55,497 bases of DNA, taken from the IMG/VR virus record IMGVR_UViG_3300047564_004158, positions 1 through 55,497 of that record. One strand, given 5' to 3'. Made by a program: the position numbers and the translations under genes. The notes beneath the pieces are model-generated. The model ran no database searches. It saw only the letters and a program-made list of their open reading frames with translations, and was not told the DNA's origin. The stretch's first letter is position 1. The number at the start of each line of letters is the position of its first letter. Positions 2,622 through 46,203 of this stretch are shown here, piece after piece. This DNA comes from a virus (lineage: Duplodnaviria; Caudoviricetes).

Positions 2622-3207
2622 TTTATTTCCTATACCCATAGGATTTTTTGAGTATACAAGTAGTTTAGACAGTGAATTAGACTATGTAACAAATTTAGAG
2701 CAGCGTAATAATCAAGGCAATACAACTAGTGTTGATAATTATGTACTTAAAGATTACCACTTACAAGAATTAAGTAGTTGGATCGACAATTGTATTAGCC
2801 AGTACTTTAGAGCAACTGCAAATCCCAAATATGATGTTCAGTTGTACACAACCCAAAGCTGGATAAATTTTACCAAGCAGGGCCAGTACCACCACAAGCA
2901 TGAGCACCCCAACAGCCTAGTAAGCGGTGTGTTTTACCTGCAAACTAATCCAGATGATAAGATATATTTTTATCGCAGCGGCTATCAACAAATTAAATTT
3001 CCGCCAGAACAGTGGAATGAGTACAACAGTGAAAGCTGGTGGTATGAGGCCCAGGCCGGTAAGCTGATCCTGTTTCCTAGCAGCTTAACACATCAAGTGC
3101 CTACTGTCGGTGGCACAACAACAAGAATTAGCCTAAGTTTTAACACCTTTGCTAGTGGCACTATAGGTGAAAATTTAGAATTAACCGAATTAATTGTGGA
3201 GCACTAG
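2608..3207 (+). CDS. Putative 2OG-Fe(II) oxygenase (TIGR02466-like)
   Basis: SWIN...HHKHEHPNSLVSGVFYL...LILFPSSLTHQV...RISLSFN: HxH..H metal triad and RxS motif. Confidence 0.85.
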   Translation: MQLNNLFPIPIGFFEYTSSLDSELDYVTNLEQRNNQGNTTSVDNYVLKDYHLQELSSWIDNCISQYFRATANPKYDVQLYTTQSWINFTKQGQYHHKHEHPNSLVSGVFYLQTNPDDKIYFYRSGYQQIKFPPEQWNEYNSESWWYEAQAGKLILFPSSLTHQVPTVGGTTTRISLSFNTFASGTIGENLELTELIVEH

Positions 3208-19259: not shown

Positions 19260-21050
19260 ATGACAACAAAAATTAATTTCAATAATATTTCTAATACTGG
19301 AGTAGTGTCCGGTACTTATAGTAATAGTATTATTAGCGTAAATGAGCAAGGCCAAATTACTTCAGCAGCCATAGGACAAAAAATACCTATAATTACTACT
19401 GTAAAAATTACTGATACTAGTTGGGTACCATTGGACGACTTAGAAGCAGATACTACTGCAGCAAATATAAGAATTTTGGGCAGTCAATTTGAACAAGGCT
19501 GTCAAGTACTATTTAATAATTTGGTAGCAACAAGCACTAGTCTTTTAAATTTTACTAGAACTACTGTAAGTACACAGTCGTTAACAAGTATATTGGACTT
19601 TACTACTACAGCAGATTTAACAGTAGGTATGCTAGTAAACGGTACAGGAATACCTTCTGAAACTACTATAACTGCAAAATTAAGTGCCACAAGAATACAA
19701 TTAAGCAAAAATTTAACTACTGCTGTACCATCTGGCAGTATTATAACATTTTCTAATAGTAATGAATTATTAATTACAGCTAATAATATACCTACAGGTA
19801 TTTATAATATTAGTGTTGTTAATCCTCAAGGTGGAATTGCTACAAAATTGAATGCTATAACTTTTGGGTCTAAGCCAATATGGGTTACTGCTACAACTCT
19901 ACCGGCTCAAAATCAACAAACTAGTTACAGCCAACAACTTTCTGCTACTTATGCAACAACATATTCTATTGAACCAGGCAGTGCTTTACCAGGTACTTTA
20001 ACGCTTAGTAGTAGCGGTCTTATTTCCGGTAATTTACCAGTAGTTACACAAAATAGTACGTATACATTTACTATAAGAGCAACAGATGCAGAATTACAAG
20101 ATAGTTTGAGAACATTTAGTTTAACTGTGTATAGGGGTACAGCTACAGCTACTATTAATCCTGCTGTTGATGGCAAAACTACTTGGGATTTTAACACAGA
20201 TGGACCAATAAATTTTACTAGTGCAGGTACTTGGACTTTAACTCCTACCACAAATTTTTATGCTTTTACTAAGGTATGGGGAGCTGGTGGTGGTGGAGAC
20301 ACTGGTGGAGGTGGTGGCTATGCTTTTGGTAACGTTTATTTTCAAAATAATCTTCCCTACTTATTTGTAGTTGGTTCTGGAGGTAATGCTGGTACAGGCG
20401 GTACAGGTGGTACAGGCGGTACAGGAGTAGGTACTGGCGGCACAGGTGGAGCGGGTTTCTACGCTGCCGCTGGTGGCAGTGGCGGCGGGGCTGGTAGTGG
20501 TATATTTCAACCAAATAGTATAAGTCAGGCAAATGCTATTATAATAGGCGGCGGAGGAGGTGGTAAAAGCACTAGACTTCAAGGCGGAGGCGGTGGAGGA
20601 ACTACAGGTAGCTTTGGTACTAATAGTGGAGTTGGTGGAGCTTCTGAAGGAGGTAGAGGTGGCACACAAACTGAGGCAGGTGCCGGCGGAACTGGGAATT
20701 CACCAGCCACCGCTATATACCCAGGTGGTTCTGGTAGCGGTATGAACGGAGGAGCTGGAGGTGGAGGCGGTGGATCTTATTTAGGTGGAGGTGGAGGTGG
20801 TGGTTATTTTGGCGGCGGTGGCGGTGGCGGTGGCAATTCGTTTGGTGCTGGTATAGACGGAGCCGGTGGTGGCGCTAGCGGCCGAGTAAACACAAATACT
20901 ACGCTAATAAATCAAACATATTTAGAAACTGCTGGACGTTCTATAATACCTGCCAATTCTACGGATCCAAATAAGTTTTCTACAGCAGGTGTAGGTGGGG
21001 CTTTAACCGATAGCAAAGGCGGCTCAGGGCAAATTTATATATTTGTATAA
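19260..21050 (+). CDS. Fibre/adhesin: N-terminal fibre motif, IPT + Ig stalk, C-terminal glycine-rich domain
   Basis: TFTIRATDAELQDSLR Ig motif, then KVWGAGGGG...GGGGGYFGGGGG. Confidence 0.78.
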   Translation: MTTKINFNNISNTGVVSGTYSNSIISVNEQGQITSAAIGQKIPIITTVKITDTSWVPLDDLEADTTAANIRILGSQFEQGCQVLFNNLVATSTSLLNFTRTTVSTQSLTSILDFTTTADLTVGMLVNGTGIPSETTITAKLSATRIQLSKNLTTAVPSGSIITFSNSNELLITANNIPTGIYNISVVNPQGGIATKLNAITFGSKPIWVTATTLPAQNQQTSYSQQLSATYATTYSIEPGSALPGTLTLSSSGLISGNLPVVTQNSTYTFTIRATDAELQDSLRTFSLTVYRGTATATINPAVDGKTTWDFNTDGPINFTSAGTWTLTPTTNFYAFTKVWGAGGGGDTGGGGGYAFGNVYFQNNLPYLFVVGSGGNAGTGGTGGTGGTGVGTGGTGGAGFYAAAGGSGGGAGSGIFQPNSISQANAIIIGGGGGGKSTRLQGGGGGGTTGSFGTNSGVGGASEGGRGGTQTEAGAGGTGNSPATAIYPGGSGSGMNGGAGGGGGGSYLGGGGGGGYFGGGGGGGGNSFGAGIDGAGGGASGRVNTNTTLINQTYLETAGRSIIPANSTDPNKFSTAGVGGALTDSKGGSGQIYIFV

Positions 21051-21086
21051 TTATATTAACTTGTAATTAGATAAGGATTATAATAA

Positions 21087-21215
21087 ATGTCTTTTACAAA
21101 AATAGATAATAGTAGTTTTTTTATTGCTAACACTGGTACATATATCAGTGTTAGTAAATATAACATATACACAGTAATAACAAGAACTGATACTGTAACA
21201 ATATCTTTTCCATAA
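21087..21215 (+). pseudogene. 42-aa remnant of an internally deleted fibre gene (or a microprotein)
   Basis: MSFTKIDNSSFFIANTGTYISVSKYNIYTVITRTDTVTISFP*, with AAGGA SD. Its start matches MSFTRID of the 3590 gene. Confidence 0.5.
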
Positions 21216-21216
21216 T

Positions 21217-21771
21217 ATGTTTATCTTAAACTTTATACCAGATTGGCTGTTTCCGCTAGTTGCTGTAATTTCTACACTATTATTTTTTGCCACTAAGTTT
21301 TTTGTACAGTTAATACCTCAGGCAAAGATTTTACACTACAGCACAATTCCGATATTTGCACTTAGTGTATTTTTAATGGGTGCAAACTGGAATAACAACC
21401 ACTGGCAAGCTAAGCTAGTCGAGGAAACTGCCAAGGCGGAACTAGCAATTAAACAGCAACAAGCAGCAAACCAAGAGCTTAAGCTAGAGCGCGAGTCTAA
21501 GTTGCAGGAACTTAAACTTTCAGCAGAACGCGAACGTCAGCAAAATAAACGATTTATTGAAGTTTTAAAATCAAAAGATGCTACAGTGCAAAATGTGTTA
21601 GCTACACTTAGTAAGGCCGAACAAGATAAATATGCCGCACTGGGTGAAAAGGATAAACAGTTGGCTAATAAAAAACTGGAAGAGGTATTGGCCAATGCTA
21701 AAAACTGTCCTACTGTGCCTGAGCTATACCTAGAAAAATTAAATAATACTGCTAAGGGTGCAAAACAATGA
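21217..21771 (+). CDS. Rz-like inner-membrane spanin
   Basis: N-terminal hydrophobic segments followed by a long coiled coil with a C-terminal Cys; precedes a lipoprotein and the endolysin. Confidence 0.7.
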   Translation: MFILNFIPDWLFPLVAVISTLLFFATKFFVQLIPQAKILHYSTIPIFALSVFLMGANWNNNHWQAKLVEETAKAELAIKQQQAANQELKLERESKLQELKLSAERERQQNKRFIEVLKSKDATVQNVLATLSKAEQDKYAALGEKDKQLANKKLEEVLANAKNCPTVPELYLEKLNNTAKGAKQ

Positions 21772-22031
21772 GATTCGTAATATTAGCACTAGCCGGCGCA
21801 CTATTAACTGGTTGTTTACAGAGTTTTAAGGTTAACCCACCTTGGCCACAAATAGCTGATCAAGGTATGCTTAAACCTTGTGAAACACTAAAGCTGGCTA
21901 ATACGCAGGATGTAAGCATGGCAGAACTTGTAGACCTTGTACAGCAAAACTATAATCTCTATCATGAGTGCAAGTTAAATAATGATAGTTGGATAAAGTG
22001 GTATACAACCCACTGGAAAAAGGATAAGTAA
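21768..22031 (+). CDS. Rz1-like outer-membrane lipoprotein spanin
   Basis: Lipobox LLTG-C, Pro-containing segment, PC...YHEC; ATGA overlap with the i-spanin. Confidence 0.75.
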   Translation: MRFVILALAGALLTGCLQSFKVNPPWPQIADQGMLKPCETLKLANTQDVSMAELVDLVQQNYNLYHECKLNNDSWIKWYTTHWKKDK

Positions 22032-22645
22032 TGGAACTAACACAAGAACAATTACAGCAAATTATACCAAAAAATAAATATGTTAGTTACTGGTATGATG
22101 CACTGCGTCAATTACTACCACAGTATGAAATAAATACTAGTGAGCGCATAGCTGCTTTTTTAGCACAGTGTGCTCATGAGTCGGGTGGATTTGTTTTTAT
22201 CAAAGAAAACTTAAACTATCGCTGGCAAAGTCTACGTAAGGTATTTCCCAAGTATTTTCCCACGGATGCATTGGCGCAGCAATATGAAAAGCAACCAGAA
22301 AAAATTGCTAATCGTGTATACGCTAACCGCATGGGCAATGGTCCTGAAGAGTCGGGCGATGGATATAAGTTTTGTGGACGTGGGTTGATACAGGTAACTG
22401 GTCGTGAAAATTACAGTTGGTTTGCGGCTAGTCTGCAAATTACACCTGAAGAAGCGTCGGAATATATGGAAACCTTTGAAGGTGCTGCACAAAGTGCCTG
22501 CTGGTTTTGGGAATCAAACAATCTTAATCAATGGGCAGACAAGCGTGATATACTCACACTTACTAAACGCATCAATGGCGGAACAATTGGCTTAGAAGAT
22601 AGGAAAAAGCATTACGAACATTGCTTACACGTACTAAGCCACTAA
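22031..22645 (+). CDS. Endolysin, glycoside hydrolase family 19
   Basis: AAFLAQCAHESGG, ENLNY, GRGLIQVTGRENY, SACWFW, TKRINGG motifs. Confidence 0.92.
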   Translation: MELTQEQLQQIIPKNKYVSYWYDALRQLLPQYEINTSERIAAFLAQCAHESGGFVFIKENLNYRWQSLRKVFPKYFPTDALAQQYEKQPEKIANRVYANRMGNGPEESGDGYKFCGRGLIQVTGRENYSWFAASLQITPEEASEYMETFEGAAQSACWFWESNNLNQWADKRDILTLTKRINGGTIGLEDRKKHYEHCLHVLSH

Positions 22646-22665
22646 AATAGTCTAAGGAGACTAAT

Positions 22666-23892
22666 ATGAAAAGAGTATTAGCCTTTGTAATAACACTAGT
22701 TGGCATAGTAGCGCCAAGTTTTTCTCAAACTCCTCCACTAATTGACCAGGGCAATTATGACGGCGGTCGTAGCCTGGTAGACACCAATAGTACTAGTGCT
22801 AGCACTAGTACTGTAACAACAAATAACACTAGTACTAGTACAAGTACAGCAACCAGCACAAGTACGGTTAATAGCGTTAGTACTAACACAAATAACAGTA
22901 CTAGTACAAGTACTAATGTAAATACAAATAATAACATACAAAGCGGTACTGCTACTAATATTAACGATAATCGTATGAGTGGTACTGTTACTTATAATAA
23001 TAACAATAATATGAGTGGCAGCGTTACCTACAATAATAATAACAACATGAGTGGTAGTGTTACATATAATAACAACAATACTACTACTAGCAACAATACA
23101 AATACTAATATTAATACTGGCACGATGACCTATAACAATAACAATGTTAATAGTGGCACTATGACCTACAACAATAACAATGTTAGTAAAAATGAAAATC
23201 AAAATGTAAACTATAATGTTAATACTGGTACACAAACACTAAATAATAATACTAAAAGCGAAAATATAAATGTTAACACTGGTACAATGAATTATAACAA
23301 TACTAATACTACTACTAGTAACAGTACGGTTAATAATGTGCAAACTGGTGACATGACTAATCGCAATATAAATCAAACAAACGCTACAACTACAAATACA
23401 AACGTTAATCAAAGTACTAGTACGGCTATAAATCAAAATGTACAAACTGGTGATATGACTAATCGTAATATTAATGATACAAATATTACACAACGTGTTA
23501 TACAGCCACCACCAACAGCAATTGCACCAGCTATGATGAGCGGCGGAGGTGCAGATCTTTGTACTACAGGTAGCAGCGGAGCAGTTCAAACACAATTCTT
23601 AGGCATGGCACTGGGCGGTACACAGCGAGATCTAAACTGTGAGAGATTGAAATTAAGTAAAACACTATATGATATGGGCATGAAAGTAGCAGCAGTAGCT
23701 ACTATGTGTCAAGATCGCAGAGTTTTTGAGGCTATGATGGCTGCTGGTACACCATGTCCCTATGAAGGTAAAATAGGCGAACAAGCTAAAGAATTGTGGT
23801 TAGCAAATCCTCATAAAGTACCACAATACGACTACAAAACAATAGCTGAAGCACCAACTACTGTTAGCCCACAGCCAGGTTGGATACGATGA
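22666..23892 (+). CDS. Exported protein with Asn/Thr-rich repeats and a Cys-containing C-terminal domain
   Basis: Signal peptide MKRVLAFVITLVGIVAPSFS; N/T repeats; PPPTAIAP...C...NCERLKLSK...MCQD...AGTPCP. Confidence 0.8.
   Translation: MKRVLAFVITLVGIVAPSFSQTPPLIDQGNYDGGRSLVDTNSTSASTSTVTTNNTSTSTSTATSTSTVNSVSTNTNNSTSTSTNVNTNNNIQSGTATNINDNRMSGTVTYNNNNNMSGSVTYNNNNNMSGSVTYNNNNTTTSNNTNTNINTGTMTYNNNNVNSGTMTYNNNNVSKNENQNVNYNVNTGTQTLNNNTKSENINVNTGTMNYNNTNTTTSNSTVNNVQTGDMTNRNINQTNATTTNTNVNQSTSTAINQNVQTGDMTNRNINDTNITQRVIQPPPTAIAPAMMSGGGADLCTTGSSGAVQTQFLGMALGGTQRDLNCERLKLSKTLYDMGMKVAAVATMCQDRRVFEAMMAAGTPCPYEGKIGEQAKELWLANPHKVPQYDYKTIAEAPTTVSPQPGWIR
22975..23082 (+). repeat. Three tandem 36-nt units encoding MSG(T/S)VTYNNNN(N/T)
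   Basis: Units start at 22975, 23011 and 23047 (atgagtgg...); differences are mostly synonymous. Confidence 0.9.
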
Positions 23893-25613
23893 GGTGGTTT
23901 TTTATAGTTTTATTATTTTCAACCAGCACAGCAGCACAAACTATTGATATTACTGGTAACCTAGTAAATAATACTCAAACTGCTACAACTGTAACTTCTA
24001 CATGGCAAAATGCTAAGTTTGTTAATGAGCTTACTTGTTGGCAGGTCGGAGATCCTAATTGTAGCGCTGGTCAGCCTTATGTGCGTCCTGATGGTAGTAT
24101 AAATTTTAGTTATAGTTACACAGAACTTTATCAGATTGTAAATGTTAGTAAAGCACTACCAAACAGCGGCACAGGATTGGTAACTACAGGGTTTACTTTT
24201 AGTTGGCGTAGTAAAAATGGTAACAGCTGGGACGATGCTAGAATGGACCAATTAAATGCCTATGTACAAGGATATACTAAAAGTGGTAAATGGATAGAAA
24301 ATTTTGGTTATAACCTTAATTTTCAGCACGACTGGACAGACTTTACTTGGTCACAGGATTGGAGTAAATTGCGTAGACCAGATGAACTAGCAAATGTATT
24401 ATTTGGTTTTAGTGGCAAAGACAATAATTATTGGATGGGACCTTATGGATCAGAGATAACAAATGTTAATTTTAGGTTGCGCTATAAACCGGATCCCTGT
24501 GTTAATAATCCACTTTATAGTCCCGACTGTCCAAAGTTTCAAGAAACACTGGCAAAAAATAATGAAAGCTATACTATAGACAATGCAACTGTTAAACCTA
24601 CCACAGTTGAATATACTAGTGACAATACAAGTAATGTTAAGCCTGTTAAATCTATTGACACCTGGCAAGATGAGGAAGAGTATAGAGATAGGCAAGAAAG
24701 CTATGTGGAATATGACTACAATAGACTACTTGATACTTTATTTAAAATAGAAGATAATCAACAGCGTGAACAAAATATTGCCGTAGACGCAGCAAATACG
24801 GCTATTAGTGAAACAGATAAGATTAGTCAACAAACAGTTCGTCAAGCCGAACAAATTGCTAGTAAAACTGTTAAACAAAGTATTGAAAATATTAGTATTG
24901 GGCAGCACTCAGCCGCAGATACTAAACAAAAGGATAATAAACAGGAACAATCTTTAGCATTATTTCAACCTAGTACAATTAATGTTCAAAGTTTATTTCA
25001 ACCTAATTTTTCACAACAACTTAATTTGCTACAAGCGCCTACATTAGTAGAAACTCAACAAGTAGGCCAACAAAATACCGAGCAACAAATTAAACCTAGT
25101 AACAATCAACAGACAAATAATTTAGTTCAACAAGTTGCTACGGTTCAACAAACTACCAATACACCAACTACAGTGCAACAACTACAACAAAGTAGCGCAA
25201 CTAATAGTACTAATACTCAAGTAACATTAGTTAACCAACTAGCATCGCAAACAGTAGAAATACCACAGCAGACACAAAGTTTTTTAACTAACAAGGCCGA
25301 TCCTATTAATGCTTTATTAGAAGCAAAACAATTAGAGCAAGATAGTAAAACAGAACAGTCTATACAGCAAGTAAAAGCTAATACTCCAGACAACGATTTA
25401 GCTAATGGGGTTAGCCTAACACAATTGGCTGTAGCACCAGCTAATTATAATCAATATTTAAATCTTGTACTACGTGATACTGCATTTTATCCTCCACGAG
25501 AGGTATACAGAAACCAGCGAACAGTAGATAATGCACGAGCGTTACGTCAGCTTAGTAGCGACAGATTACACAAACAAATGGTTGATCAACAATATGGAGG
25601 TAGCCGTGAGTGA
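23889..25613 (+). CDS. Exported protein with beta-sandwich-like N-terminus, DPC..NPL..P.CP motif and Gln-rich tail
   Basis: Start moved to ATG 23889 (ATGA overlap); signal peptide MRWFFIVLLFSTSTAA. Confidence 0.75.
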   Translation: MRWFFIVLLFSTSTAAQTIDITGNLVNNTQTATTVTSTWQNAKFVNELTCWQVGDPNCSAGQPYVRPDGSINFSYSYTELYQIVNVSKALPNSGTGLVTTGFTFSWRSKNGNSWDDARMDQLNAYVQGYTKSGKWIENFGYNLNFQHDWTDFTWSQDWSKLRRPDELANVLFGFSGKDNNYWMGPYGSEITNVNFRLRYKPDPCVNNPLYSPDCPKFQETLAKNNESYTIDNATVKPTTVEYTSDNTSNVKPVKSIDTWQDEEEYRDRQESYVEYDYNRLLDTLFKIEDNQQREQNIAVDAANTAISETDKISQQTVRQAEQIASKTVKQSIENISIGQHSAADTKQKDNKQEQSLALFQPSTINVQSLFQPNFSQQLNLLQAPTLVETQQVGQQNTEQQIKPSNNQQTNNLVQQVATVQQTTNTPTTVQQLQQSSATNSTNTQVTLVNQLASQTVEIPQQTQSFLTNKADPINALLEAKQLEQDSKTEQSIQQVKANTPDNDLANGVSLTQLAVAPANYNQYLNLVLRDTAFYPPREVYRNQRTVDNARALRQLSSDRLHKQMVDQQYGGSRE

Positions 25614-26259
25614 AGAAAAAGTAAACTTAGACAAAAAGGTTGAAGAATTAGAAGCTGCAGCTAAAAAATATGCTAGTAAAGATACTGTTATTAGTGTTGG
25701 TGGATATGATTTTACTCCGGCTAAACTAATGATTGTTGCTACACTATTAAGCAGCGTGTTAGGTGCACTATATGGTGCTTTTGAAGTTTACAAAGACTAT
25801 ATTGGCATGAAGAAAAAGATTGCTGAGTATGTGGCTCCAGACTTTAGCGAGTTTGATAAAAGACTAGCAGTAATTGAAGAAAATTCTGCAAAAACAGCTA
25901 AGGCTGTGCAAGATGGATCGGATAAAACTGCTGAGTATACTCGTGACATTAAAAATGATCTTAAAGGCGATATACGTAGACTAGAAAAAGTTGTTGAAAG
26001 TGTGGAAACTAGTAATAAGACCCAACAACGTGAAATAGATAAAACTGTACAGGAGATCAAGGTAGAAGTTAGATCAATACAAAAAGCAGCTGATCAAGCA
26101 CTTAATAGTGCTACTAAAGAAATGAATAAAATGAGTGCAGATAATGCTAAAGCTATTGCAGCAAACAATCGTGAAGTTGAAGCTAAAATGCGTGCACTTG
26201 ATAAAAAGATCAATGAAGATCTTAAAAAGGCACTTGATAATCCACTAGCTAATAAGTAG
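25606..26259 (+). CDS. Single-TM coiled-coil protein
   Basis: Start moved to GTG 25606 (GGAGG SD at 25596). TM segment LMIVATLLSSVLGALYGAF, then a long heptad-rich region. Confidence 0.75.
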   Translation: MSEEKVNLDKKVEELEAAAKKYASKDTVISVGGYDFTPAKLMIVATLLSSVLGALYGAFEVYKDYIGMKKKIAEYVAPDFSEFDKRLAVIEENSAKTAKAVQDGSDKTAEYTRDIKNDLKGDIRRLEKVVESVETSNKTQQREIDKTVQEIKVEVRSIQKAADQALNSATKEMNKMSADNAKAIAANNREVEAKMRALDKKINEDLKKALDNPLANK

Positions 26260-26267
26260 GAGAAACT

Positions 26268-26795
26268 ATGACAGAACAAGTAGAAAAAAAGCCACTAACT
26301 CGCAGCGAAAAAGAAGCTAAAATTAAAGATAAAGCAGGTTTTGTTATCGTATTCTTAGCAGCCCTACTAGCTATTAACACAATGATTGGTGGTAGTAATA
26401 GTAGTAAGATACAAAATAATACTATTCAAGCCAACAACATGTGGGCATGGTATCAAGCTAAAAATGTACGCGGTGTACTTTATGAAATTAGTGCTGCTGA
26501 AGCACAAAAGCCTGAAAATCGTGATAAGTTTTTAGCAGAAGCTAAACGCATGAGCGATGATAAAAAAGACATTATGGAAAAGGCTAAAGCGCTGGAAGCT
26601 GAACGTGATGAAGCAAAAAAGCGTAGTCCATGGTTTACCTGGGGTGGCAGTATACTACAAATTAGCATTGTATTACTAACTGCTAGTATATTAGCGGCTA
26701 GTATGCCTATGTTTTGGGTTAGTACCGTAGTAGGTGCGCTAGGTAGTCTAATAGTTACACAAGCATTGTGGATGTGGCTACCGTGGTTAGGATAA
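26268..26795 (+). CDS. Membrane protein, DUF4337-like
   Basis: TM - WAWYQAK - coiled coil - LQISIVL..AS - TM architecture. Confidence 0.65.
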   Translation: MTEQVEKKPLTRSEKEAKIKDKAGFVIVFLAALLAINTMIGGSNSSKIQNNTIQANNMWAWYQAKNVRGVLYEISAAEAQKPENRDKFLAEAKRMSDDKKDIMEKAKALEAERDEAKKRSPWFTWGGSILQISIVLLTASILAASMPMFWVSTVVGALGSLIVTQALWMWLPWLG

Positions 26796-27013
26796 TATTA
26801 TTATCATCATTACTACTAGCTAGTTGTAGCGACATGTACAGGTATCCTTGTCAAAATCCTGACAACTGGGATCATAAAGTTTGTAAACGACCTTATTGCA
26901 GCGCAAATGGAACTTGCCCAGAAGATCTAACACCTTATGAAAAAGGTCTTGCAAATAATCCTGGTAAACCAATAACTTCAACCCCAGTTCAAGCAGCAAA
27001 GGATTGTAAATGA
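26768..27013 (+). CDS. Cys-rich small lipoprotein
   Basis: Lipobox LLAS-C; YRYPCQNPDNW...C..PYC...GTCP. The start could instead be GTG 26783. Confidence 0.7.
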   Translation: MDVATVVRIILLSSLLLASCSDMYRYPCQNPDNWDHKVCKRPYCSANGTCPEDLTPYEKGLANNPGKPITSTPVQAAKDCK

Positions 27014-27459
27014 TTAAAGACCTTTGGTCCGGCCCGCGTTACACAGAAGACGAGCTAATGGCCAGGCTTAAATTTTTTATAGGTATGGTACTAGCACTAA
27101 CACTATTTGGTATCGTATTTGTAGTACTCTATAGCCTAATATTTGTAACACAGCCTATGAATGGTATTAGCCCTGTAGATAACAAGTTTTTTGAATTGAT
27201 TATTCCTATTGCTACATTCCTAACAGGTACACTTAGCGGTATAATGTTAGCTAGCGGCGATAAGGATGCTCAAAAAGCAGCCCTACAAGCTGCAAATAAA
27301 GGTTGGGATAAACCACCAAGCCCAACACCTATGCCAACCGTTACCCTAGGTAATAATGGTAGCATAAGCATAGCATCTCCGTCAACTGGTGGCAATCAAG
27401 TAACTGTTGGGTTTGGCGGTAAAGCCGCACCACCACAGCAACCCTTTCCAGAACTATAA
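27010..27459 (+). CDS. Two-TM membrane protein with Pro-rich tail
   Basis: FFIGMVLALTLFGIVFVVLYSLIF and LIIPIATFLTGTLSGIML; ATGA overlap with the lipoprotein gene. Confidence 0.72.
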   Translation: MIKDLWSGPRYTEDELMARLKFFIGMVLALTLFGIVFVVLYSLIFVTQPMNGISPVDNKFFELIIPIATFLTGTLSGIMLASGDKDAQKAALQAANKGWDKPPSPTPMPTVTLGNNGSISIASPSTGGNQVTVGFGGKAAPPQQPFPEL

Positions 27460-27471
27460 TAGGAAATTTAT

Positions 27472-27759
27472 ATGACTAAAACTTTACTAGCACTTATAGC
27501 TTCAGCACTTCTACTACAACCAGCACTAGCCGCAGATCCGGTAAAAAAGGAAGAAAAAGCTCCTGCTAAAGTAGAAGCTAAGAAGGACGAGCCAGTTAAA
27601 AAAGAAGATAAGGCTCCAGCTAAAAAAGAGCGTGCTTGTATTGACAAAGTAAAGGATGGTAAGCCTGTTATTGGCAAAGATGGTAAGCCAGAGCAGGTAT
27701 GCAAAGAAGTTAAGGTTCACGAAAAATTAGATGGACATAAAGTACCCGATAAAAAGTAA
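27472..27759 (+). CDS. Exported Lys/Glu-rich protein with one Cys pair
   Basis: Signal peptide ending PALA; internal repeat PVKKE(E/D)KAPAK. Confidence 0.7.
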   Translation: MTKTLLALIASALLLQPALAADPVKKEEKAPAKVEAKKDEPVKKEDKAPAKKERACIDKVKDGKPVIGKDGKPEQVCKEVKVHEKLDGHKVPDKK

Positions 27760-27781
27760 CCTTAACTACTAGGACTCTAAT

Positions 27782-28468
27782 ATGGCCAAAAGCAGTGCTA
27801 AAAAATTACGCAGCGTACAACGTGATAACGTTGTTCCCCTGGAAATAGGCTTTGAAAATGTAAAACCACTTAATTATATTCAAGGCGAATATTTACGGGC
27901 CATTCATGAAAATAGTATAATCTTTGGTATAGGCAGCGCAGGCACTGGCAAGACCTATATTGCAGCAACATATGCGGCCGGTGAGTTATTTCACCGCCGC
28001 ATTAAAAAGATTATATTAACAAGACCTAACATAGAAACTGGACGTGGACTTGGATTTTTACCAGGTACACTAGAAGAAAAATATGCGCCATACTTAGAAC
28101 CATTTGACCAAATCTTTACCAATAGTCTTGGTCGTGGCTTTTATGAGTATGCGCTAAGTAAAAAACAAATAGAACCTAAACCGCTGGGGTTTATGCGCGG
28201 ACTAACCTTTGATGATTGTATAGTTCTTCTCGACGAAGCACAAAATGCTACTAGAGATGAATTAAAAATGATCTTGTCACGCATAGGTAAAAACTGTAAA
28301 ATAATAATTAGTGGCGACCACGAGCAAAGTGATATTAACAATAGCGGACTCCTAGACGCTACGCAGCGACTAGAACATATTGAAGACATAGAAGTTGTTC
28401 GTTTTCGTGATGATGACATTGTTCGCAGCAAATTGTGTAAACAAATTATTATGGCTTATAAGCAATGA
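27782..28468 (+). CDS. phoH: PhoH-family ATPase
   Basis: GSAGTGKT, LTRP, GFLPG, FMRG.TF, DEAQN, GD..QSD, DIVRS motifs. Confidence 0.95.
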   Translation: MAKSSAKKLRSVQRDNVVPLEIGFENVKPLNYIQGEYLRAIHENSIIFGIGSAGTGKTYIAATYAAGELFHRRIKKIILTRPNIETGRGLGFLPGTLEEKYAPYLEPFDQIFTNSLGRGFYEYALSKKQIEPKPLGFMRGLTFDDCIVLLDEAQNATRDELKMILSRIGKNCKIIISGDHEQSDINNSGLLDATQRLEHIEDIEVVRFRDDDIVRSKLCKQIIMAYKQ

Positions 28469-28761
28469 GAATGCGTTTACCACCTAAAAATCGTAATCAA
28501 GGCATTTACTGGGTTAGATACTATTTAGATCACGTAGATCGACCACCAGCAAAGCCAAAAGTTACAAAACAAGATGAATATCGACAAACACTTGTACAAA
28601 TACTAGACTGCTTTGAGCAGTCTAGTTATCCACTGGACATAGAAGTTTTTATTCAAGAAGTACATAGACTGCTACAATTAAAGCGTATAACTAGCAAACA
28701 CATGGAAAAAATTAACTACACTATAGGTGTACTAACTAACAAATACAATCAGGAGTTGTAA
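28465..28761 (+). CDS. Hypothetical protein
   Basis: 98 aa, overlapping both neighbours. Confidence 0.55.
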   Translation: MRMRLPPKNRNQGIYWVRYYLDHVDRPPAKPKVTKQDEYRQTLVQILDCFEQSSYPLDIEVFIQEVHRLLQLKRITSKHMEKINYTIGVLTNKYNQEL

Positions 28762-29405
28762 TGGCTAAGACATATAAACCAACAAGTGGCATGGCCAGTG
28801 CCGCTAGACGAGCATTAAAGTGGAAAAGTGAAGGCAAAGCTGGTGGTACACTTGTTGGCTTAGCCAGAGCTAATCAGTTAAAAGATCGTGACCCACTGAG
28901 TGCAAGTGTAGTTCTACGCATGTACAGCTTTTTTAGCCGTCATGAAGTAGACAAAAAAGCAACAGGATTTTACAGCGGACAAGAAGGATTTCCTAGCAAA
29001 GGTCGCGTAGCTTGGGATCTTTGGGGTGGTGATGGCGGATATAGCTGGAGTAGTGCTAAGCGCAATCAAATTATGCGAGATCGTGAAAATAAAGCCATAC
29101 AGCTAGTACGTATAGCTCAAAAAGGCATGATTAGTAAACCACTACGTATGATGGCTGCACAAGTAATTGAAAACTATGCAAACCAAAATATCAGTGAAGA
29201 TCTAGAGGCATTTGGTCAATTTATGTATCATGCAGAATTGTTACGTAATGACCACTTAGATATTTACCTCCTAGACCTACACCGAGTAGATCAACCTTAT
29301 CGTGATATACTAGTAGAAGTATTTAGCCAGCTAGATGACATGCATGATGAGGATAATAGCGTAGATGATGAAGATAGTAGTGAAGATACGCCACTAACTC
29401 TATAA
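28761..29405 (+). CDS. Conserved phage protein of unknown function (RMYSFFSRH...GRVAWDLWGGD motif) with acidic tail
   Basis: GGAG SD; basic N-terminal domain; DEDNSVDDEDSSED tail. Confidence 0.7.
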   Translation: MAKTYKPTSGMASAARRALKWKSEGKAGGTLVGLARANQLKDRDPLSASVVLRMYSFFSRHEVDKKATGFYSGQEGFPSKGRVAWDLWGGDGGYSWSSAKRNQIMRDRENKAIQLVRIAQKGMISKPLRMMAAQVIENYANQNISEDLEAFGQFMYHAELLRNDHLDIYLLDLHRVDQPYRDILVEVFSQLDDMHDEDNSVDDEDSSEDTPLTL

Positions 29406-29407
29406 AC

Positions 29408-29443
29408 AAAAAAGCCCAGTAGATTGCTCTACTGGGCTTTTTT
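29408..29443. terminator. Bidirectional rho-independent terminator at the convergence of the + and - blocks
   Basis: aaaaaaGCCCAGTAGA-ttgc-TCTACTGGGCtttttt. Confidence 0.93.
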
Positions 29444-29444
29444 A

Positions 29445-29636
29445 TTACTCACTAGACTCTGATTCGGTAGCAGCAGCTTTTTCAGCAGCTTCCCTAGCAA
29501 AGTGTTCGTTGGCTTGAAGGTGAAGTTTTTGAATTATAGGGTTAGCAACTTTTGCAGGTAATTCTTGCAATCCGCTAATAATATAATTGATTTCGTCTAT
29601 ATTTAACTTCCAGCTGTATTCTTTAATTTCGTTCAT
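29445..29636 (-). CDS. Small conserved phage protein (EIN.I..GLQELP..V...I.KL)
   Basis: Start moved to ATG 29636 (ATGA overlap with the RNR stop). Confidence 0.6.
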   Translation of the reverse strand: MNEIKEYSWKLNIDEINYIISGLQELPAKVANPIIQKLHLQANEHFAREAAEKAAATESESSE

Positions 29637-31600
29637 TTTATTGGGCAAGCTCCGGTACTACAATCATCGCCAACAATTTCATCAAAACTGTTAGCATTTT
29701 CTAAATTTACTGGTTTTAGATTATAAACATAATCTTTATAAGTTTGCTCGTCTACAACTTCTTGTGGCAGATACAAGTAGCCTAAATCTTGCGCTGTTTT
29801 AGTAGGATCGGTTCTATAGATAAAGCTCACACCTACATAGCAATCCCAATTGTTAAGTAACCAGTCAATAATTTCTGTAATTTCGCCAGGGTCATAACTA
29901 ATAGTTACCGATGTGTTTTGTTGTGTCCAGCTAGTTTGCAGTAATTTATATCGTTCTAGCTGATAGACTGCGCTTTCAAGATTGACTTCTTTGCCGTTTT
30001 CTTTATGGAACGGTACATCTTTCCACTCTACAGGAAATGTTACTAGTACACCAGTAGGGTCTGTAGGATGATTCATTACCTTGTAGCCTGCTTCACGCAT
30101 TAGTGGAATAACAGGGTCATAGGTACTAAACTGCACATTATTGAAAATGTACTTGCCTAGTGGCTTGTGTACACCTTCTGTACAATCCATAATCTTTGAT
30201 AGCGTTCCCGATGGCTTAACGCATGTAACATTTTTAGGACGTGGTAGCCCTAATTCATCGGCCATGCTAATAGCAGCACTGGTTGCTGTACGCTTAAGAT
30301 ACTCATAGTCATAACTATTCATATCAGGACGCATTGCAATACCAGTTAAACCAACCCCGCAGAGACGTAGGAAATAGTTGTTAAGGTGCCATGCTTCTTG
30401 TAAGATCCCGTCTTTAAGATTAACACAGGTTTGGCGATAATTAGCCCTGGAAGCCAATCTGATCGCATCGTGTAATCCGGCAGTGTCACCTTTAAACTTG
30501 GAGATGTCCGTTTCTGTAAGGTTACAGAAGGACTTGTTGCCCAATAGGATTTCGACACATGGATTTGCTCCTTTAAACCACGGAGCACGTCTAAGAGCTT
30601 CTTGTTCATTGATAAATCCTGGTTCACTACCGCCAGCTTCTTGCATAAGATTAAATATATGCTTTAGTTCGCTTCTAGTTGGTTTTTCTTTAAATACTAG
30701 ACTGTTATTTGATTGTTGACGATGTTCGCGACCATACAACCAAAAGTCCTTTTTAGCTATTGCAAATTCTTCCCACTCCGGTTGACCATAGTCGAAAAGA
30801 GCGATTTCAGCCGATCTACGACTGGACAAGATCGTTCCGAGATGATTAACAATGTCAAGAATATCCATCCTAGTGAGAAGGCTATCAGCCCTACCATTAA
30901 GTATGTTGGCAATTGCAACATAAGCTTTTGAGATAGCGCTGTCACCACTGCTAATCCATCCATATCCTTTTAACCTTTCCCCAGCAGGTCTGAGCTGACT
31001 AAAATCAAGCACAAGAGTATCAGCAGGCCATTTGCCAGCAAGGAGCTTGCCGATAGATTTAGCCCAAGCCTCTGCACTGTCTCCAACTTGGATTGTCCAG
31101 GTTTTTGTACCCGCATCCCAGGTCTCAACATTGTGCTCAAGTCCACCCTTAGCTGTTCGTTGACTTTTAACAACTTGAATATTTTTGATTGGTTTTGAGA
31201 ATCCATTTAGTGTACCTACAATCGGTTTGAATCCTACTCCACATCCTTGCAATAGTAACCACAATACGTCAACTACATCGTAGACTGTTTCTACTTGTGT
31301 AAAGCTACAATTGAATTGGCTGGCCTCTCTGGTTTGCGCTACGTTTGTACCGCCTAACCACAGTGTGCGCCCACTCATTAGTACTTTTCTAGCTAGCATT
31401 AACTGTTCTAATTGTTCTAATTCTGCTACTTCATTAAAATATAGTTGACGACCTACACTACGTTCCCACAACCAGTGTTGGTGATCACGTACTCGTCTAA
31501 TTGTTTGCGCCCATGTTTCAAATTGTTTACCGTCATCACTAGTGGGTCTTGAATACGTTCTACGGGTAATTACCTGTGCGCGTGTGCTTGGCATTGTCAT
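29633..31600 (-). CDS. nrdJ: Class II (adenosylcobalamin-dependent) ribonucleotide reductase, monomeric RTPR type
   Basis: RRTY, GRTLW, FNCSF, LLQGCGVGF, RRSAEI, NPCVEI (catalytic), KPSGT and C-terminal CSTGACP motifs; no R2 subunit nearby. Confidence 0.9.
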   Translation of the reverse strand: MTMPSTRAQVITRRTYSRPTSDDGKQFETWAQTIRRVRDHQHWLWERSVGRQLYFNEVAELEQLEQLMLARKVLMSGRTLWLGGTNVAQTREASQFNCSFTQVETVYDVVDVLWLLLQGCGVGFKPIVGTLNGFSKPIKNIQVVKSQRTAKGGLEHNVETWDAGTKTWTIQVGDSAEAWAKSIGKLLAGKWPADTLVLDFSQLRPAGERLKGYGWISSGDSAISKAYVAIANILNGRADSLLTRMDILDIVNHLGTILSSRRSAEIALFDYGQPEWEEFAIAKKDFWLYGREHRQQSNNSLVFKEKPTRSELKHIFNLMQEAGGSEPGFINEQEALRRAPWFKGANPCVEILLGNKSFCNLTETDISKFKGDTAGLHDAIRLASRANYRQTCVNLKDGILQEAWHLNNYFLRLCGVGLTGIAMRPDMNSYDYEYLKRTATSAAISMADELGLPRPKNVTCVKPSGTLSKIMDCTEGVHKPLGKYIFNNVQFSTYDPVIPLMREAGYKVMNHPTDPTGVLVTFPVEWKDVPFHKENGKEVNLESAVYQLERYKLLQTSWTQQNTSVTISYDPGEITEIIDWLLNNWDCYVGVSFIYRTDPTKTAQDLGYLYLPQEVVDEQTYKDYVYNLKPVNLENANSFDEIVGDDCSTGACPIK

Positions 31601-32019
31601 AAATCTACCTCTTCTCGTTTCTGTTCTGATAAAATATCTCTAAATACTTGAACTAGAATTTCCCTATCCGGATTACTAAATTGGCCTTTGACTCCAGGCA
31701 GCCTAATTGATTTTATCTGCTGTCTATGTTCATAGTATTCTAATATAGTTTCTGCTTGAGATAACTTATCGATTAAGTATGGCTTTATTAATTTAATAAA
31801 CTCAATAGCATTTTCACCATAGAAAGAGTAAGCATATTGCGTTTTATTAATCTTTTGGGTCCTATTTGTAATTGAACCACCAAAAATACTTTGCAGCTTA
31901 AGCAAAACCTTTTTAGAGGTATTTACTACTCGTACATCTACTGCTCCATTTTTTGATATAGTAATGCAACCTTCTCCATCAAAAAATCCGGCAGCATATG
32001 CTATATCAATTTCTTGCAT
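31597..32019 (-). mobile_element. Free-standing single-motif LAGLIDADG homing endonuclease gene
   Basis: AYAAGFFDGEGCI motif, ..IKPYLIDK..QA; sits between dUTPase and nrdJ. Confidence 0.85.
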
Positions 32020-44696: not shown

Positions 44697-45446
44697 TTAA
44701 GCAGCTTTGGCTTCTGCCTTAGCACGCTTAGCAGCACCATCATAGTCTGCAACTTTAATACCACGACGGGTTAAAAGTGTCTTAAGACCACGCTCTGTTT
44801 TATCAACAGCAGCTGCAATTTCTGCAACAGTCATTTGATGAATCTTGCTACCTAGTTGGGTAACTGGATCAACATTCTCTTTTGCATAGCTGTTCTTTTG
44901 TGCAGGAATCTTAGCAATTTGACCCTTGCGAGTAAGGCTAAGAGCTTTACCACGAACACTTGCTACAGTCTTATTAAGTGCTGCGGCAATATCCTCAATA
45001 AAGGCACCTTTTTCAGCCATTGCAATAAACTTGGCTTCTTCGGCATCAGTATATGTACGGGCAACCTCAACTTTTTCAGCAGGCTTTACACTACCAGTAA
45101 GCTCAAGTGCTAAAAGCTTACCTTGAATCTGCTTGGCAGTAAACTTGCCATCCATGAATTCTTCGGCGATTTGTTTGTAGGTAAGTTCGCCAGTGTTGCT
45201 AATAACAAACTCAGCAAGCTCAGCTCCCTCATCTTCAGTAAAGGCACTAGTTTTTTCTTTGGCCATACTAGCAACTTCTACCTCAAGTTGACGTAGTTTG
45301 CTAGCAACGCTACGAGCAGTAAAATCTGCGCCAAGTGATTCAGCAGCATGTTCAACAGTAGCGGCACTAACAGGACGCTGGCTACCAACAAGTTTCATAA
45401 GTTGGTCAACAGTAGCGTCAGACCATTTTTTGGCTTTTTCAGTCAT
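44697..45446 (-). CDS. DNA-binding transcription regulator (T5 D5-like)
   Basis: Repeated HTH-like units, SVRGKALSL, RGLKTLLTRRG..ADYDG; synteny after the ligase. Confidence 0.85.
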   Translation of the reverse strand: MTEKAKKWSDATVDQLMKLVGSQRPVSAATVEHAAESLGADFTARSVASKLRQLEVEVASMAKEKTSAFTEDEGAELAEFVISNTGELTYKQIAEEFMDGKFTAKQIQGKLLALELTGSVKPAEKVEVARTYTDAEEAKFIAMAEKGAFIEDIAAALNKTVASVRGKALSLTRKGQIAKIPAQKNSYAKENVDPVTQLGSKIHQMTVAEIAAAVDKTERGLKTLLTRRGIKVADYDGAAKRAKAEAKAA

Positions 45447-46203
45447 TTATATGTTCTCTTAAAAAAGTATTTAAGTTTGTGATGATTTTTATGCCGAGTT
45501 GTTCGGCTTTTTTACGTTTTGTACTACTTTTATCTTCTTCGTCAACCAAATAATCCGTAGTTTTAGTTACAGTTTCGCTGATACGAAATCCGTGATCTGT
45601 TAGTTGCTTGTAGGCTTCGGCTTTAGTTTTATAAGAAGATAGTTTGCCTGTAATACATACTGTTTTACCACTAGTATTTACAACAGGCGTTTCACTGCGA
45701 AATGAAAAAGGTAAAAACTCTCGCATTTCTTGGAAATCTAGTTCAAGCCAGTTAAGTAGGTTTTCTGTTACTTTGTCACCTAGTCCGGCTTGTTTGCAGG
45801 TTTCTAAGCTAATTTCATCAATATGATTTACTATGCTAGCGATCTTACCACTAGCTGTTGAACCAACTAGTGGAATACTAAAACTGGCAAGTACTTGATT
45901 TAGTGGGGCACTGCGACTCTTGTCAATTTCACTGATAAGTTTTTCAGCAGTTTTAATACTGCCTAGTTGACTAGCAACTTCATCAAGCTCTAGATAATAG
46001 AGTTCAGTAATATCAGCTAAACCTAACTTTTCAATAGTTTTTGCACCCATACCCTTGATACCCATACTTTTGCAAAAGTGTTCTACACGCTTGCTAAGTT
46101 GAGCATCACATGCTTGGTTGCGACAAAACAATTGATCGTTGACCAATTCAAGTTTGTAGTTACAACATGGACAATGTGTGGGTATTTCAATCTTCATATT
46201 CAT
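45439..46203 (-). CDS. NAD-dependent DNA ligase subunit B (Zn finger, HhH, BRCT)
   Basis: CPCC...C...C, IKGMG, CITGKL, K.KKAEQLGI motifs. Confidence 0.9.
   Translation of the reverse strand: MNMKIEIPTHCPCCNYKLELVNDQLFCRNQACDAQLSKRVEHFCKSMGIKGMGAKTIEKLGLADITELYYLELDEVASQLGSIKTAEKLISEIDKSRSAPLNQVLASFSIPLVGSTASGKIASIVNHIDEISLETCKQAGLGDKVTENLLNWLELDFQEMREFLPFSFRSETPVVNTSGKTVCITGKLSSYKTKAEAYKQLTDHGFRISETVTKTTDYLVDEEDKSSTKRKKAEQLGIKIITNLNTFLREHIND

Follow-up and report, generated by a model that had tools for sequence, protein, structure and literature searches.

The described systems with which the genes considered here can most closely be compared are the spanins, exemplified by Rz/Rz1 of phage lambda (PMC6139136), the holin T/antiholin RI pair of phage T4, the releasin gp25 of phage Mu and a curli/type VIII secretion cluster of pelagiphages. 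Here, we analyzed a cluster of seven plus-strand genes, g1 to g7 (22666–27759), carried by a stretch of 55,497 bases that is the whole of the IMG/VR virus record IMGVR_UViG_3300047564_004158 (completeness estimate ~51%) and is referred to below as the window. The first three genes, g1-g2-g3, make up a core triplet that is common to many unrelated phages of aquatic bacteria and was previously undescribed. To our knowledge, there is no account of the way in which phages that infect SAR11 and other streamlined bacteria of this kind disrupt the outer layers of the host cell.

With the spanins, the triplet shares the predicted build of g3, which has the N-terminal transmembrane (TM) segment and the putatively periplasmic coiled coil of an inner-membrane spanin (i-spanin), a location in or beside lysis cassettes, start/stop overlaps that link its genes, and conserved C-terminal ends of the partner proteins, which could meet in the periplasm. 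In contrast to the two proteins of a spanin pair, however, the triplet comprises three core proteins, its predicted exported partners g1 and g2 lack a lipobox, g2 carries a lectin-like domain, and in the window the module coexists with a spanin-like pair. No spanin family match was obtained for g1–g7 in Pfam or PHROGs, and an hhalign comparison of the g3 family with the family of the window's i-spanin-like protein returned a probability of 0.3%.

The T4 holin T has its N-terminus in the cytoplasm (N-in), one TM segment and a large periplasmic domain. Its antiholin RI carries a cleavable signal peptide, is exported and binds T at the latter's periplasmic domain (PMC8385771, PMC11413866). The triplet resembles this pair in combining a one-TM inner-membrane protein that has a large, predicted periplasmic domain with one or more Sec-exported partners, and in late expression and a lysis context, both deduced for the triplet from its surroundings; it differs in that the putative periplasmic part of g3 is a coiled coil of variable length and in that the partners are much larger and contain spacers. 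No holin T or RI family match was found (Pfam, E <= 0.1; PHROGs, E <= 0.01); the likeness is one of topology only, and, unlike for T4 T/RI, we found no evidence of lysis inhibition by the triplet.

The Mu gp25 releasin (DUF2730; PMC9239132) is, like g3, a small protein that is helical beyond its N-terminal TM segment and whose gene lies close to those of endolysins from several enzyme classes; it is, however, oriented N-out/C-in with a cytoplasmic domain, whereas g3 is predicted to be N-in/C-out. Neither g3 nor seven g3-position proteins of GenBank phages gave a DUF2730 (PF10805) match, and the DUF2730 label that GenBank gives to the g3-position protein of the uncultured phage MedDCM-S28-C10 was not reproduced in current Pfam.

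The pelagiphage curli/type VIII secretion cluster (PMC7029224, PMC9599517) has been transferred across families, occurring in myo- and podovirus-type phages, and is an earlier example of an envelope cassette of several genes that pelagiphages of different families exchange. Like the triplet, it is a multigene envelope module without a host counterpart, shared across families and without an assigned function. The gene sets differ, however, the triplet being devoid of the histidine kinase, FecR and cyclase; a cyclase-domain gene lies near the triplet in five loci. No match of g1–g7 to CsgG, CsgF or Curlin_rpt was found in Pfam at E <= 0.1.

A conserved core triplet within a mosaic gene cluster

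An earlier note on the window, made from the sequence alone, had described seven tightly packed genes directly 3′ of an endolysin gene and had proposed that together they encode an envelope apparatus. The seven plus-strand open reading frames (ORFs) are indeed present in this arrangement and, as each of them has protein-level relatives in other viral contigs, they represent real genes rather than chance frames. The stop codon of g1 and the start codon of g2 overlap as ATGA, as do those of g5 and g6, and the remaining gaps measure 8–22 nucleotides (nt); the overlaps point to translational coupling at these junctions.

The cluster was compared across 85 loci, i.e. five with g2 and 80 with a g3 relative, the latter being the best among the IMG/VR stretches that encode one (at least 597), in which all ORFs, including those of flanks fetched at 7 kb, were scored with local profiles of the window proteins. 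While g3 is present in 85/85 loci by construction, the g1 domain was found in 75, the g2 N-domain in 74 and the g2 C-terminus in 71 of them. The triplet is complete in 72/85 loci, and in all 72 the three genes lie on the same strand in the order g1>g2>g3; among the remaining 13 loci, ten start inside g2 at a contig end and three have other genes in the place of g2. The g5 and g6 genes occur in 23 loci each and are adjacent in 23/23, g6 always lying directly 3′ of g5, whereas g4 (20/85) and g7 (13/85) come and go. All seven genes were found together in only two loci (L004 and L015), both of them close relatives of the window (protein identity 94–99% for L004). Thus, part of the cluster, namely the triplet and the g5-g6 pair, co-occurs elsewhere, whereas a fixed seven-gene apparatus is not supported.

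Overall, these results define a mosaic, consisting of the core triplet g1-g2-g3 and optional g4, g5-g6 and g7, and we consider it highly probable that the triplet is one functional module.

Other genes can insert between g2 and g3, as indicated by gaps of >300 nt in 17 loci, and a second, shorter g3 paralogue is present in eight loci. In a variant seen in about 14 loci (L008, and also L032–L035, L039–L043, L054, L056 and L065), a short g2 is followed by three extra signal-peptide proteins ahead of g3 (8231–9500 in L008). These proteins form clusters 3, 4 and 5, with 14 loci each; none has a Pfam match, and the first displays, by eye, a pilin-like N-terminal strand and a terminal Cys pair. In L005 (3933–4286) and L007 (1766–2095), an ORF of 109–117 amino acids that resembles an outer-membrane barrel and ends in F lies between g2 and g3. 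Its matches are weak (PagP-like phrog_3600, E 7e-4; Opacity family, E 0.023), and it could be an outer-membrane anchor of the module in some phages.

Predicted features of the core proteins

Signal peptides and TM segments were called by a Kyte-Doolittle scan, by-eye reading, motif inspection and charge counts. On this basis and that of Pfam, all seven products appear to be directed to the envelope, each with the feature attributed to it beforehand. None of g1–g7 matches a catalytic family in Pfam, PHROGs, NCBIfam or PADLOC. The NCBIfam search yielded chance-level rows only, and the PADLOC matches of g3 to the coiled-coil tails of ZorA, JetC and LeoA and of g7 to PglX (E 8e-4) were taken as compositional. 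At the nucleotide level, megablast of positions 21000–29500 against 50,697 GenBank phage records gave no match.

The g1 gene (22666–23892, plus strand) encodes a signal-peptide-like N-terminus (MKRVLAFVITLVGIVAPSFS/Q, by hydropathy and by eye), an N/T-rich spacer, a QPPPTAIAP hinge and a helical four-Cys domain. The spacer consists of 19% N and 18% T and contains a 36-nt (12-residue) repeat; in pelagiphages it is S/T-rich instead, and the repeat region varies in length. The conserved domain of ~100 residues (about 290–390) contains four invariant Cys, with 54 invariant columns among 19 aligned sequences. It is a widespread domain, as residues 285–408 match 3865 of 4079 candidate metagenome protein clusters (E <= 0.001); the best 120 of these 3865 matches are 74–88% identical, and every named one is called hypothetical. 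A hydrophobic C-terminal tail of the GIGAILGVLVHKLF type, which the window copy lacks, is found in 90 of the 120 listed homologues. The protein also matches phrog_20531 (unknown function; E 4.7e-12). The AlphaFold2 (AF2) model of the domain, built from the 19-row alignment, is poor (predicted local distance difference test score, pLDDT, of 57) and contains four short helices; the alignment profile retrieved one chance-level row (E 0.31) from PDB sequences, and the ESM Atlas returned unnamed viral clusters only.

For g2 (23889–25613, plus strand), ATG 23889 is most likely the start, rather than TTG 23880, because of its ATGA overlap with the g1 stop codon. The protein is Q/T/N-rich and begins with a signal-peptide-like segment (MRWFFIVLLFSTSTAA/Q), and a hydrophobic N-terminus is present in 95 of 120 listed homologues. 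A lectin- or carbohydrate-binding module (CBM)-like beta-sandwich (~20–230) with a conserved Cys pair (207/217) is followed by a long helix (~280–340), a disordered Q-rich linker and conserved C-terminal ~80 residues that end in HKQMVDQQY, for which 128 of 235 candidates match (E <= 0.001). In the AF2 model, residues 20–230 mostly have a pLDDT of >90, and the best fold match of the model is the sugar-binding domain of Fbs1 (VIA Z 12.6, root-mean-square deviation 3.0 over 150 residues; Foldseek E 1.4e-6), with tips of phage tailspikes or fibres and CBMs as further matches of the N-domain (Z 8–10). Going by the modelled fold, the g2 N-domain may be a carbohydrate-binding beta-sandwich of the galactose-binding-like or CBM type. 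FBA, DUF642 and CBM_4_9 came up in the ESM Atlas as leads only; the window protein has no Pfam match, and the g2-position protein of MedDCM-S28-C10 matches CBM_4_9 weakly (E 0.0089). No match to g2 was found by tblastn against the 50,697 GenBank phage records. The conserved Cys residues of both g1 and g2 would fit periplasmic disulfides.

The g3 gene (25606–26259, plus strand) most likely starts at GTG 25606, because a GGAGG motif precedes this codon and homologues begin there; ATG 25531 is an unlikely start. The encoded protein has a short N-tail, one TM segment, a K/A/E-rich coiled coil and a C-terminal ALDNPLAN. In the alignment, F, D, N and P are invariant, a juxtamembrane block (FEVYKDY..MK..I..YVAPD) is conserved and the ALDNPL peptide at the C-terminus is invariant, while the coiled coils of different homologues vary in length over a range of about 100 residues; pelagiphage and roseophage proteins share the NPL end. 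Three hundred representatives at 50% identity match g3 (E <= 0.001); tblastn against the GenBank phage records retrieved one record, HTVC115P. The mean charges flanking the TM segment (+1.0 on the N side, −0.8 on the C side) mildly favour an N-in/C-out topology.

Distribution of the triplet across unrelated phages

The g1 domain was detected in 13 GenBank records, corresponding to 12 distinct phages: the Pelagibacter phages HTVC202P, HTVC115P, HTVC023P, HTVC033P, Baldr and Mosig, the Roseobacter phages CRP-207 and CRP-810, the Ralstonia phage RSP15 and three uncultured phages. The domain of the window is 52–56% identical to the pelagiphage copies and 41% identical to that of RSP15. By eye, the triplet architecture is present in HTVC202P, HTVC115P and Mosig, and it is likely, from the sizes and annotation of the genes, to be present in HTVC023P, HTVC033P, Baldr and MedDCM-S28-C10 as well. 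In the pelagiphages that were read, a g1-like gene is followed by a gene for a larger protein, which has a hydrophobic N-terminus or signal peptide, resembles a carbohydrate-binding protein in its first part and contains an acidic linker, and then by one for a small TM and coiled-coil protein with the NPL end.

GenBank labels the triplet genes as 'hypothetical protein' or, wrongly, as 'lysozyme'. The CRP-810 gp51 product ('lysozyme'; 6198–6620 in L012) is a TM and coiled-coil protein with an NPL end like that of g3, and CRP-207 gp73 ('putative lysozyme'; 3292–3873 in L099) has coiled-coil-type Pfam matches only. As neither contains a Pfam murein-hydrolase domain, they were not counted as endolysin neighbours; their labels are probably annotation errors and could mislead surveys of lysis genes.

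The genomic backbones that carry the triplet are diverse and include T4-like, T5-like, T7-like and other phages, the window group being T5-like. Most of the 80 IMG/VR loci are T4-like, with RegA, gp59, gp32, gp33-like and DsbA-like genes, and a divergent gp43-type polymerase gene adjoins g1 in 21 loci. The record of MedDCM-S28-C10 places this phage in Autographiviridae, a tape measure gene is present in HTVC202P, and the module also lies in other podovirus- or siphovirus-like pelagiphages. Moreover, L005, a T4-like contig, shares g1–g6 with the T5-like window at 59–91% identity, which indicates that the cassette moves between phage families. A scan of one genome per prokaryote species revealed no cellular homologue of the triplet; its 20 matches all come from metagenome bins whose taxonomic assignments contradict one another (among them Actinomycetota, Polynucleobacter, Bacteroides and an archaeon), and for this reason were read as mis-binned phage contigs and not as cellular homologues or a clue to the host. 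By these comparisons, g1-g2-g3 appears to be a phage-specific, horizontally mobile three-gene module. We found neither a family name nor a published description of it in the literature, within a search that did not extend to the supplementary gene tables of pelagiphage papers.

Lysis gene neighbours and a late-promoter-like motif

In the window, as in L004, L016–L018, L039, L042, L050 and L065, the gene immediately upstream of g1 is a GH19 gene, and an endolysin of a different family (phrog_938) is found upstream in L005. A Peptidase_M15_3 gene is located directly 3′ of the g3-like gene in HTVC023P, with an M15 gene downstream in L008; HTVC033P has an Amidase_2 gene three genes upstream, MW202481 a GTA_holin_3TM-like and a Phage_lysozyme gene downstream, and MW202675 a GH19+PG_binding_1 gene 2 kb downstream. 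GTA_holin_3TM was also matched directly upstream in Mosig (25.8 bits, cutoff 24.8) and downstream in the seven loci of cluster 13. Hence, the neighbouring lysis enzymes belong to several unrelated families. Across the 85 loci, the density of matches to murein hydrolases or holin-like proteins is 4.3 times as high at up to 3 kb from the triplet as at 3–7 kb (32 versus 5 matches over 407 versus 276 kb; binomial p 6e-4), p-values of this kind overstating the case because the query enzymes came from triplet neighbours and the loci are related.

The lysis genes of lambda and T7 sit just before the terminase genes. The triplet is likewise found just upstream of terminase genes in HTVC202P, Baldr, MedDCM-S28-C10, where it lies between tail fibre and terminase, and CRP-207. 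In addition, T4 late promoters have the sequence TATAAATA, with the core TAAATA, and after dereplication 42 of 63 loci contain this core in the 100 nt that precede g1, compared to 65 of 469 control upstream regions (Fisher p 3.6e-18), which suggests late transcription of the triplet in mostly T4-like loci.

A lipobox scan of complete genomes found no convincing lipoprotein ORF in HTVC202P (one ORF of 32 amino acids in the early region) or in Baldr (none), while recovering the o-spanin-like gene and g5 in the window. These two phages thus have no obvious canonical spanin.

Two further gene families were observed near the triplet. In T4-like contigs, a signal-peptide Peptidase_S11 gene (E 1.3e-34; cluster 6, 8751–9512 in L051 and ten further loci) lies ~0–3.3 kb away; such a DD-carboxypeptidase/endopeptidase is a phage-encoded murein-remodelling enzyme. 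Cluster 0 (6476–7120 in L043 and 31 further loci) comprises proteins of ~164 amino acids with a C-terminal TM segment and no family match, encoded usually 80–200 nt downstream of g3 and often after a signal-peptide ORF of 60–79 amino acids. They were considered as holins and set aside, given their lack of similarity to GTA_holin_3TM-like proteins (best E 0.03, in a tiny database).

A possible bridge across the periplasm and its alternatives

The earlier note had listed superinfection exclusion, lysis timing, surface display and aggregation as possible functions. The late-promoter-like motifs, the endolysin and holin neighbours and the position ahead of terminase genes favour a lysis-linked role and make superinfection exclusion a less favoured one. 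We put the chance that the triplet serves lysis in some way at a little short of even. More specifically, we propose, with a probability of roughly 0.3, that it forms a periplasm-spanning complex acting at the outer-membrane/murein step of lysis. According to this model, g3 would be held N-in in the inner membrane by its single TM segment, its variable-length coiled coil carrying the invariant ALDNPL peptide outward. The g2 protein, exported by Sec, would grip an envelope glycan (peptidoglycan or a lipopolysaccharide/capsule sugar) with its lectin-like beta-sandwich and offer its conserved C-terminal segment on a long flexible linker, and g1, likewise exported but in the majority of homologues anchored in the inner membrane through a hydrophobic C-terminal tail, would present the disulfide-bonded four-Cys domain. 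The three proteins may thus form a bridge that is restrained by intact murein and that, after endolysin action, helps to break the outer layers in a spanin-like manner but without a lipoprotein, with g5-g6, g4 and g7 as dispensable additions to this late operon that act in the membrane or the periplasm. The spacers of g1, g2 and g3, together with the conserved ends, would fit parts that bridge a fixed gap. A complex prediction with the g1 domain, the g2 C-terminus and the putative periplasmic part of g3 scored 0.00 twice, which speaks neither for nor against binding. That the triplet represents a so far unrecognized class of envelope machinery, i.e. a lipoprotein-free, three-part, periplasm-spanning lysis complex that replaces spanins in phages of the most abundant aquatic bacteria (SAR11, roseobacters, freshwater relatives), is traded as a cassette among T4-, T5-, T7-like and other phages and has its action tied to the state of the cell wall by the g2 lectin domain, is a bolder proposal that we regard as rather unlikely.

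Several observations weigh against such a lysis complex. Chief among them is the spanin-like pair that is encoded upstream of the endolysin in the window and its close relatives, where a second outer-membrane device would therefore be redundant. The triplet has no homology to any lysis protein in Pfam or PHROGs, its topologies and signal peptides derive from hydropathy and charge counts only, and neither a lipid anchor on g1 or g2 nor any outer-membrane-inserting element was identified. Apart from the inflated p-values indicated above, 55 of the 85 loci have no hydrolase or holin-like match within 3 kb, no murein hydrolase was found within the 7-kb flanks of most T4-like loci, and the annotated endolysin lies ~20–25 kb from the triplet in HTVC202P and Baldr. 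Furthermore, TAAATA is a short AT-rich word, and no more than 7 of 68 g1 upstream regions contain the strict TATAAATA.

Within lysis, the closest rival to the bridge is a timing device of the T4 T/RI type, in which g3 would be a class III-type holin with a topology like that of T4 gpT, and g1 and g2 restraining or triggering periplasmic partners, the g2 lectin acting as a sensor of the envelope state. The size and predicted topology of g3 agree with those of T, RI offers the example of an exported partner bound to the holin's periplasmic domain, and the lysis-cassette context and late-promoter evidence apply here as well. Moreover, the window endolysin lacks an export signal and so needs a holin, and no holin family was recognized among its neighbours. 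However, g3 itself has no holin family match in Pfam or PHROGs, a separate holin-like gene accompanies the triplet in Mosig, MW202481, L008 and the seven-locus cluster 13, and a coiled coil of variable length with an invariant end peptide resembles a spacer more than a pore former; we regard a timing device as quite unlikely. Outside lysis, the triplet might remodel or shield the envelope of the infected cell, excluding superinfection or blocking receptors or tail lysozymes in the manner of T4 Imm/Sp or T5 Llp. All products are predicted to lie in the envelope, the g1 four-Cys domain is so strongly conserved among phages of both Alpha- and Betaproteobacteria that its target may be conserved as well, and different phage groups have different N-terminal domains in the g2-position protein, as if matched to variable surfaces. 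In T4 itself, imm sits near the gp43 polymerase gene, beside which the module is found in T4-like loci. Known exclusion genes are, however, expressed early, whereas the module has late-promoter-like motifs and stands in strings of late or lysis genes; known exclusion proteins are single small proteins rather than three-part sets with long spacers, and PADLOC gave no match other than the compositional ones. We judge such a protective role to be possible but doubtful.

A function at the cell surface before lysis, in adhesion or aggregation ('sibling capture') or in nutrient capture, would make use of the lectin-like fold of g2 and of the 12-residue N-rich repeats of g1, which might form fibres. 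The cross-family transfer of the triplet and its wide occurrence among phages that infect streamlined aquatic bacteria parallel those of the curli cluster (PMC7029224, PMC9599517), and a small ORF with weak matches to outer-membrane proteins lies between g2 and g3 in L005 and L007. On the other hand, no secretion pore or usher was recognized, g1–g7 being without a match to CsgG, CsgF or curlin, and consequently nothing was seen that could take either g1 or g2 through the outer membrane; the usual C-terminal end of g1 is an anchor of the inner-membrane type, and the g1 repeat region, varying in length or S/T-rich in pelagiphages, is spacer-like, all of which makes a surface function decidedly improbable. 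The three genes could also be independent small membrane 'morons' that travel together by linkage only, g1–g3 not binding one another. The rarity of loci with all seven genes (2/85) and the insertion of genes between g2 and g3 are in line with this explanation, but the invariable g1>g2>g3 order (72/72), kept across backbones that share little else and down to about 25–30% identity, the constant adjacency of g5 and g6 and the start/stop overlaps within the set argue for joint function, and we deem a mere association in travel improbable. Finally, a role in the virion or in ejection, with the proteins forming a channel in the next host cell, could be brought to mind by the position of the module between head and tail genes in HTVC023P and L008 and beside the terminase in four phages. 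The predicted Sec-type signal peptides and the conserved Cys of g1 and g2, which set these products apart from virion-type proteins, point, however, to export during synthesis, which is incompatible with cytoplasmic packaging, and the same module is present in myo-, sipho- and podovirus-type backbones, so that a virion role is hardly credible.

Should the triplet be a lysis device, it would add another way in which the final step of Gram-negative lysis is solved and bear on the burst timing of the most abundant marine viruses; should it be an exclusion or surface system, it would represent a widespread means of phage-phage competition. Either way, it illustrates clearly the movement of a cassette of several genes from one phage family to another, unrelated one. 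As phage gene sets without annotation go, it is also one of the more common, with a g3 relative encoded in at least 597 IMG/VR stretches and 3865 protein clusters matching the g1 domain. Because the triplet is present in cultured Pelagibacter and Roseobacter phages, its function is directly testable in existing phage-host pairs.

Accessory genes

The g4 gene (26268–26795, plus strand) encodes a membrane protein with one TM segment, a charged loop of ~85 residues and two C-terminal TM segments. It is a full-length DUF4337 protein (PF14235; E 1.7e-31, 110 bits against a cutoff of 27, residues 24–166 on profile positions 5–160 of 161), and its position varies among the 20 loci that carry it. No match was found by tblastn in the GenBank phage records, and no function was found for the DUF4337 family, the literature naming it being concerned with unrelated subjects as far as titles and the beginnings of abstracts go.

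The paired genes g5 (26768–27013, plus strand; start possibly at GTG 26783) and g6 (27010–27459, plus strand) mostly lie directly 3′ of g3 or of a g3 paralogue. The g5 product is a small, putatively exported Cys-rich protein with six Cys, five of which are conserved among 24 aligned homologues in the pattern RYPCQ.P.NWD...C..P.C.....CPE ... C-K. Its description as a lipoprotein fits the window, where the lipobox LLLASC is present, but not the family at large, in which only part of the 24 aligned homologues retain the lipobox Cys; g5 thus appears to be a lipoprotein in the window's clade only. Unlike an o-spanin, it lacks this Cys in a large part of the homologues and is encoded in only 23/85 loci. 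The g6 product has two TM segments, a highly conserved membrane core and a variable Pro-rich tail, and matches phrog_25359 (unknown function; E 1.1e-18). By tblastn, relatives of g6 were found in two of the GenBank phage records; in MW202675, such a relative lies between the g3-like gene and the GH19+PG_binding gene.

The last gene of the cluster, g7 (27472–27759, plus strand), encodes a small, probably exported Lys/Glu-rich protein (24% Lys) with a signal-peptide-like N-terminus (MTKTLLALIASALLLQPALA/A) and a conserved C-terminal block with two Cys. The 13 loci that carry it are mostly T5-like, with g7 followed by PhoH.

Setting of the cluster in the window

The window is a T5-like phage contig. 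On its plus strand, an i-spanin-like gene, an o-spanin-like gene, a GH19-type endolysin gene, g1–g7 and a PhoH gene (27782–28468) form a continuous string, with overlaps or gaps of at most 22 nt at the junctions. The i-spanin-like gene (21217–21771, plus strand), the first of the string, encodes a membrane protein with a hydrophobic N-terminus, a K/E/Q-rich coiled coil and a C-terminal Cys, and has no family match in Pfam or PHROGs. The alignment of its family shows two conserved N-terminal hydrophobic segments (IPDWFFPL... and ...GANWNNN.W), compared to the single TM segment of lambda Rz. Its stop codon overlaps, as ATGA, the start of the o-spanin-like gene (21768–22031, plus strand), which encodes a small predicted lipoprotein with the lipobox LLTGC (found by the scan) and weakly matches the Rz1-like LysC family PF23793 (E 0.015) and the Rz-like spanin phrog_456 (E 0.0072), both under curated levels. 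The endolysin gene (22031–22645, plus strand) matches the endolysin phrog_181 (E 8.7e-77) and, below the cutoff, Glyco_hydro_19 (E 0.0017), and its product has no signal peptide or TM segment in the hydropathy scan. No holin family was recognized anywhere in the string in Pfam or PHROGs; the i-spanin-like protein or g6 could be the missing holin.

A sigma-70-like site (21056–21084) lies upstream of the i-spanin-like gene, and the sole plus-strand terminator-like site within the cluster is a weak five-pair one (22700–22717) in the first 50 bases of g1. Neither scan as a whole exceeded shuffled sequences (49 versus 38.3 ± 6.0 sigma-70-like sites; 8 versus 7.5 ± 3.1 terminators).

The right half of the window carries, on the minus strand, T5-like replication genes, including those for a D5-like regulator, an SbcCD-like nuclease, a DnaB-like helicase and a primase, as well as genes for a family A polymerase and a class II ribonucleotide reductase, three tRNAs and an NAD-dependent DNA ligase. 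The latter is split over two adjoining genes (45439–46203 and 46283–47239; phrog_3498 and phrog_3359), a trait of T5-like phages. An HNH endonuclease gene (31597–32019) lies between the ribonucleotide reductase and dUTPase genes. The left half is occupied on the plus strand by large tail-fibre- or baseplate-like genes, amid which a 2OG-Fe(II) oxygenase gene (2608–3207) is located. The final tail-fibre-like gene ahead of the lysis string (19260–21050) encodes a protein of 596 amino acids with an Ig-like He_PIG domain, the C-terminal half of which consists largely of Gly-rich runs (GGGGG, GTGG).

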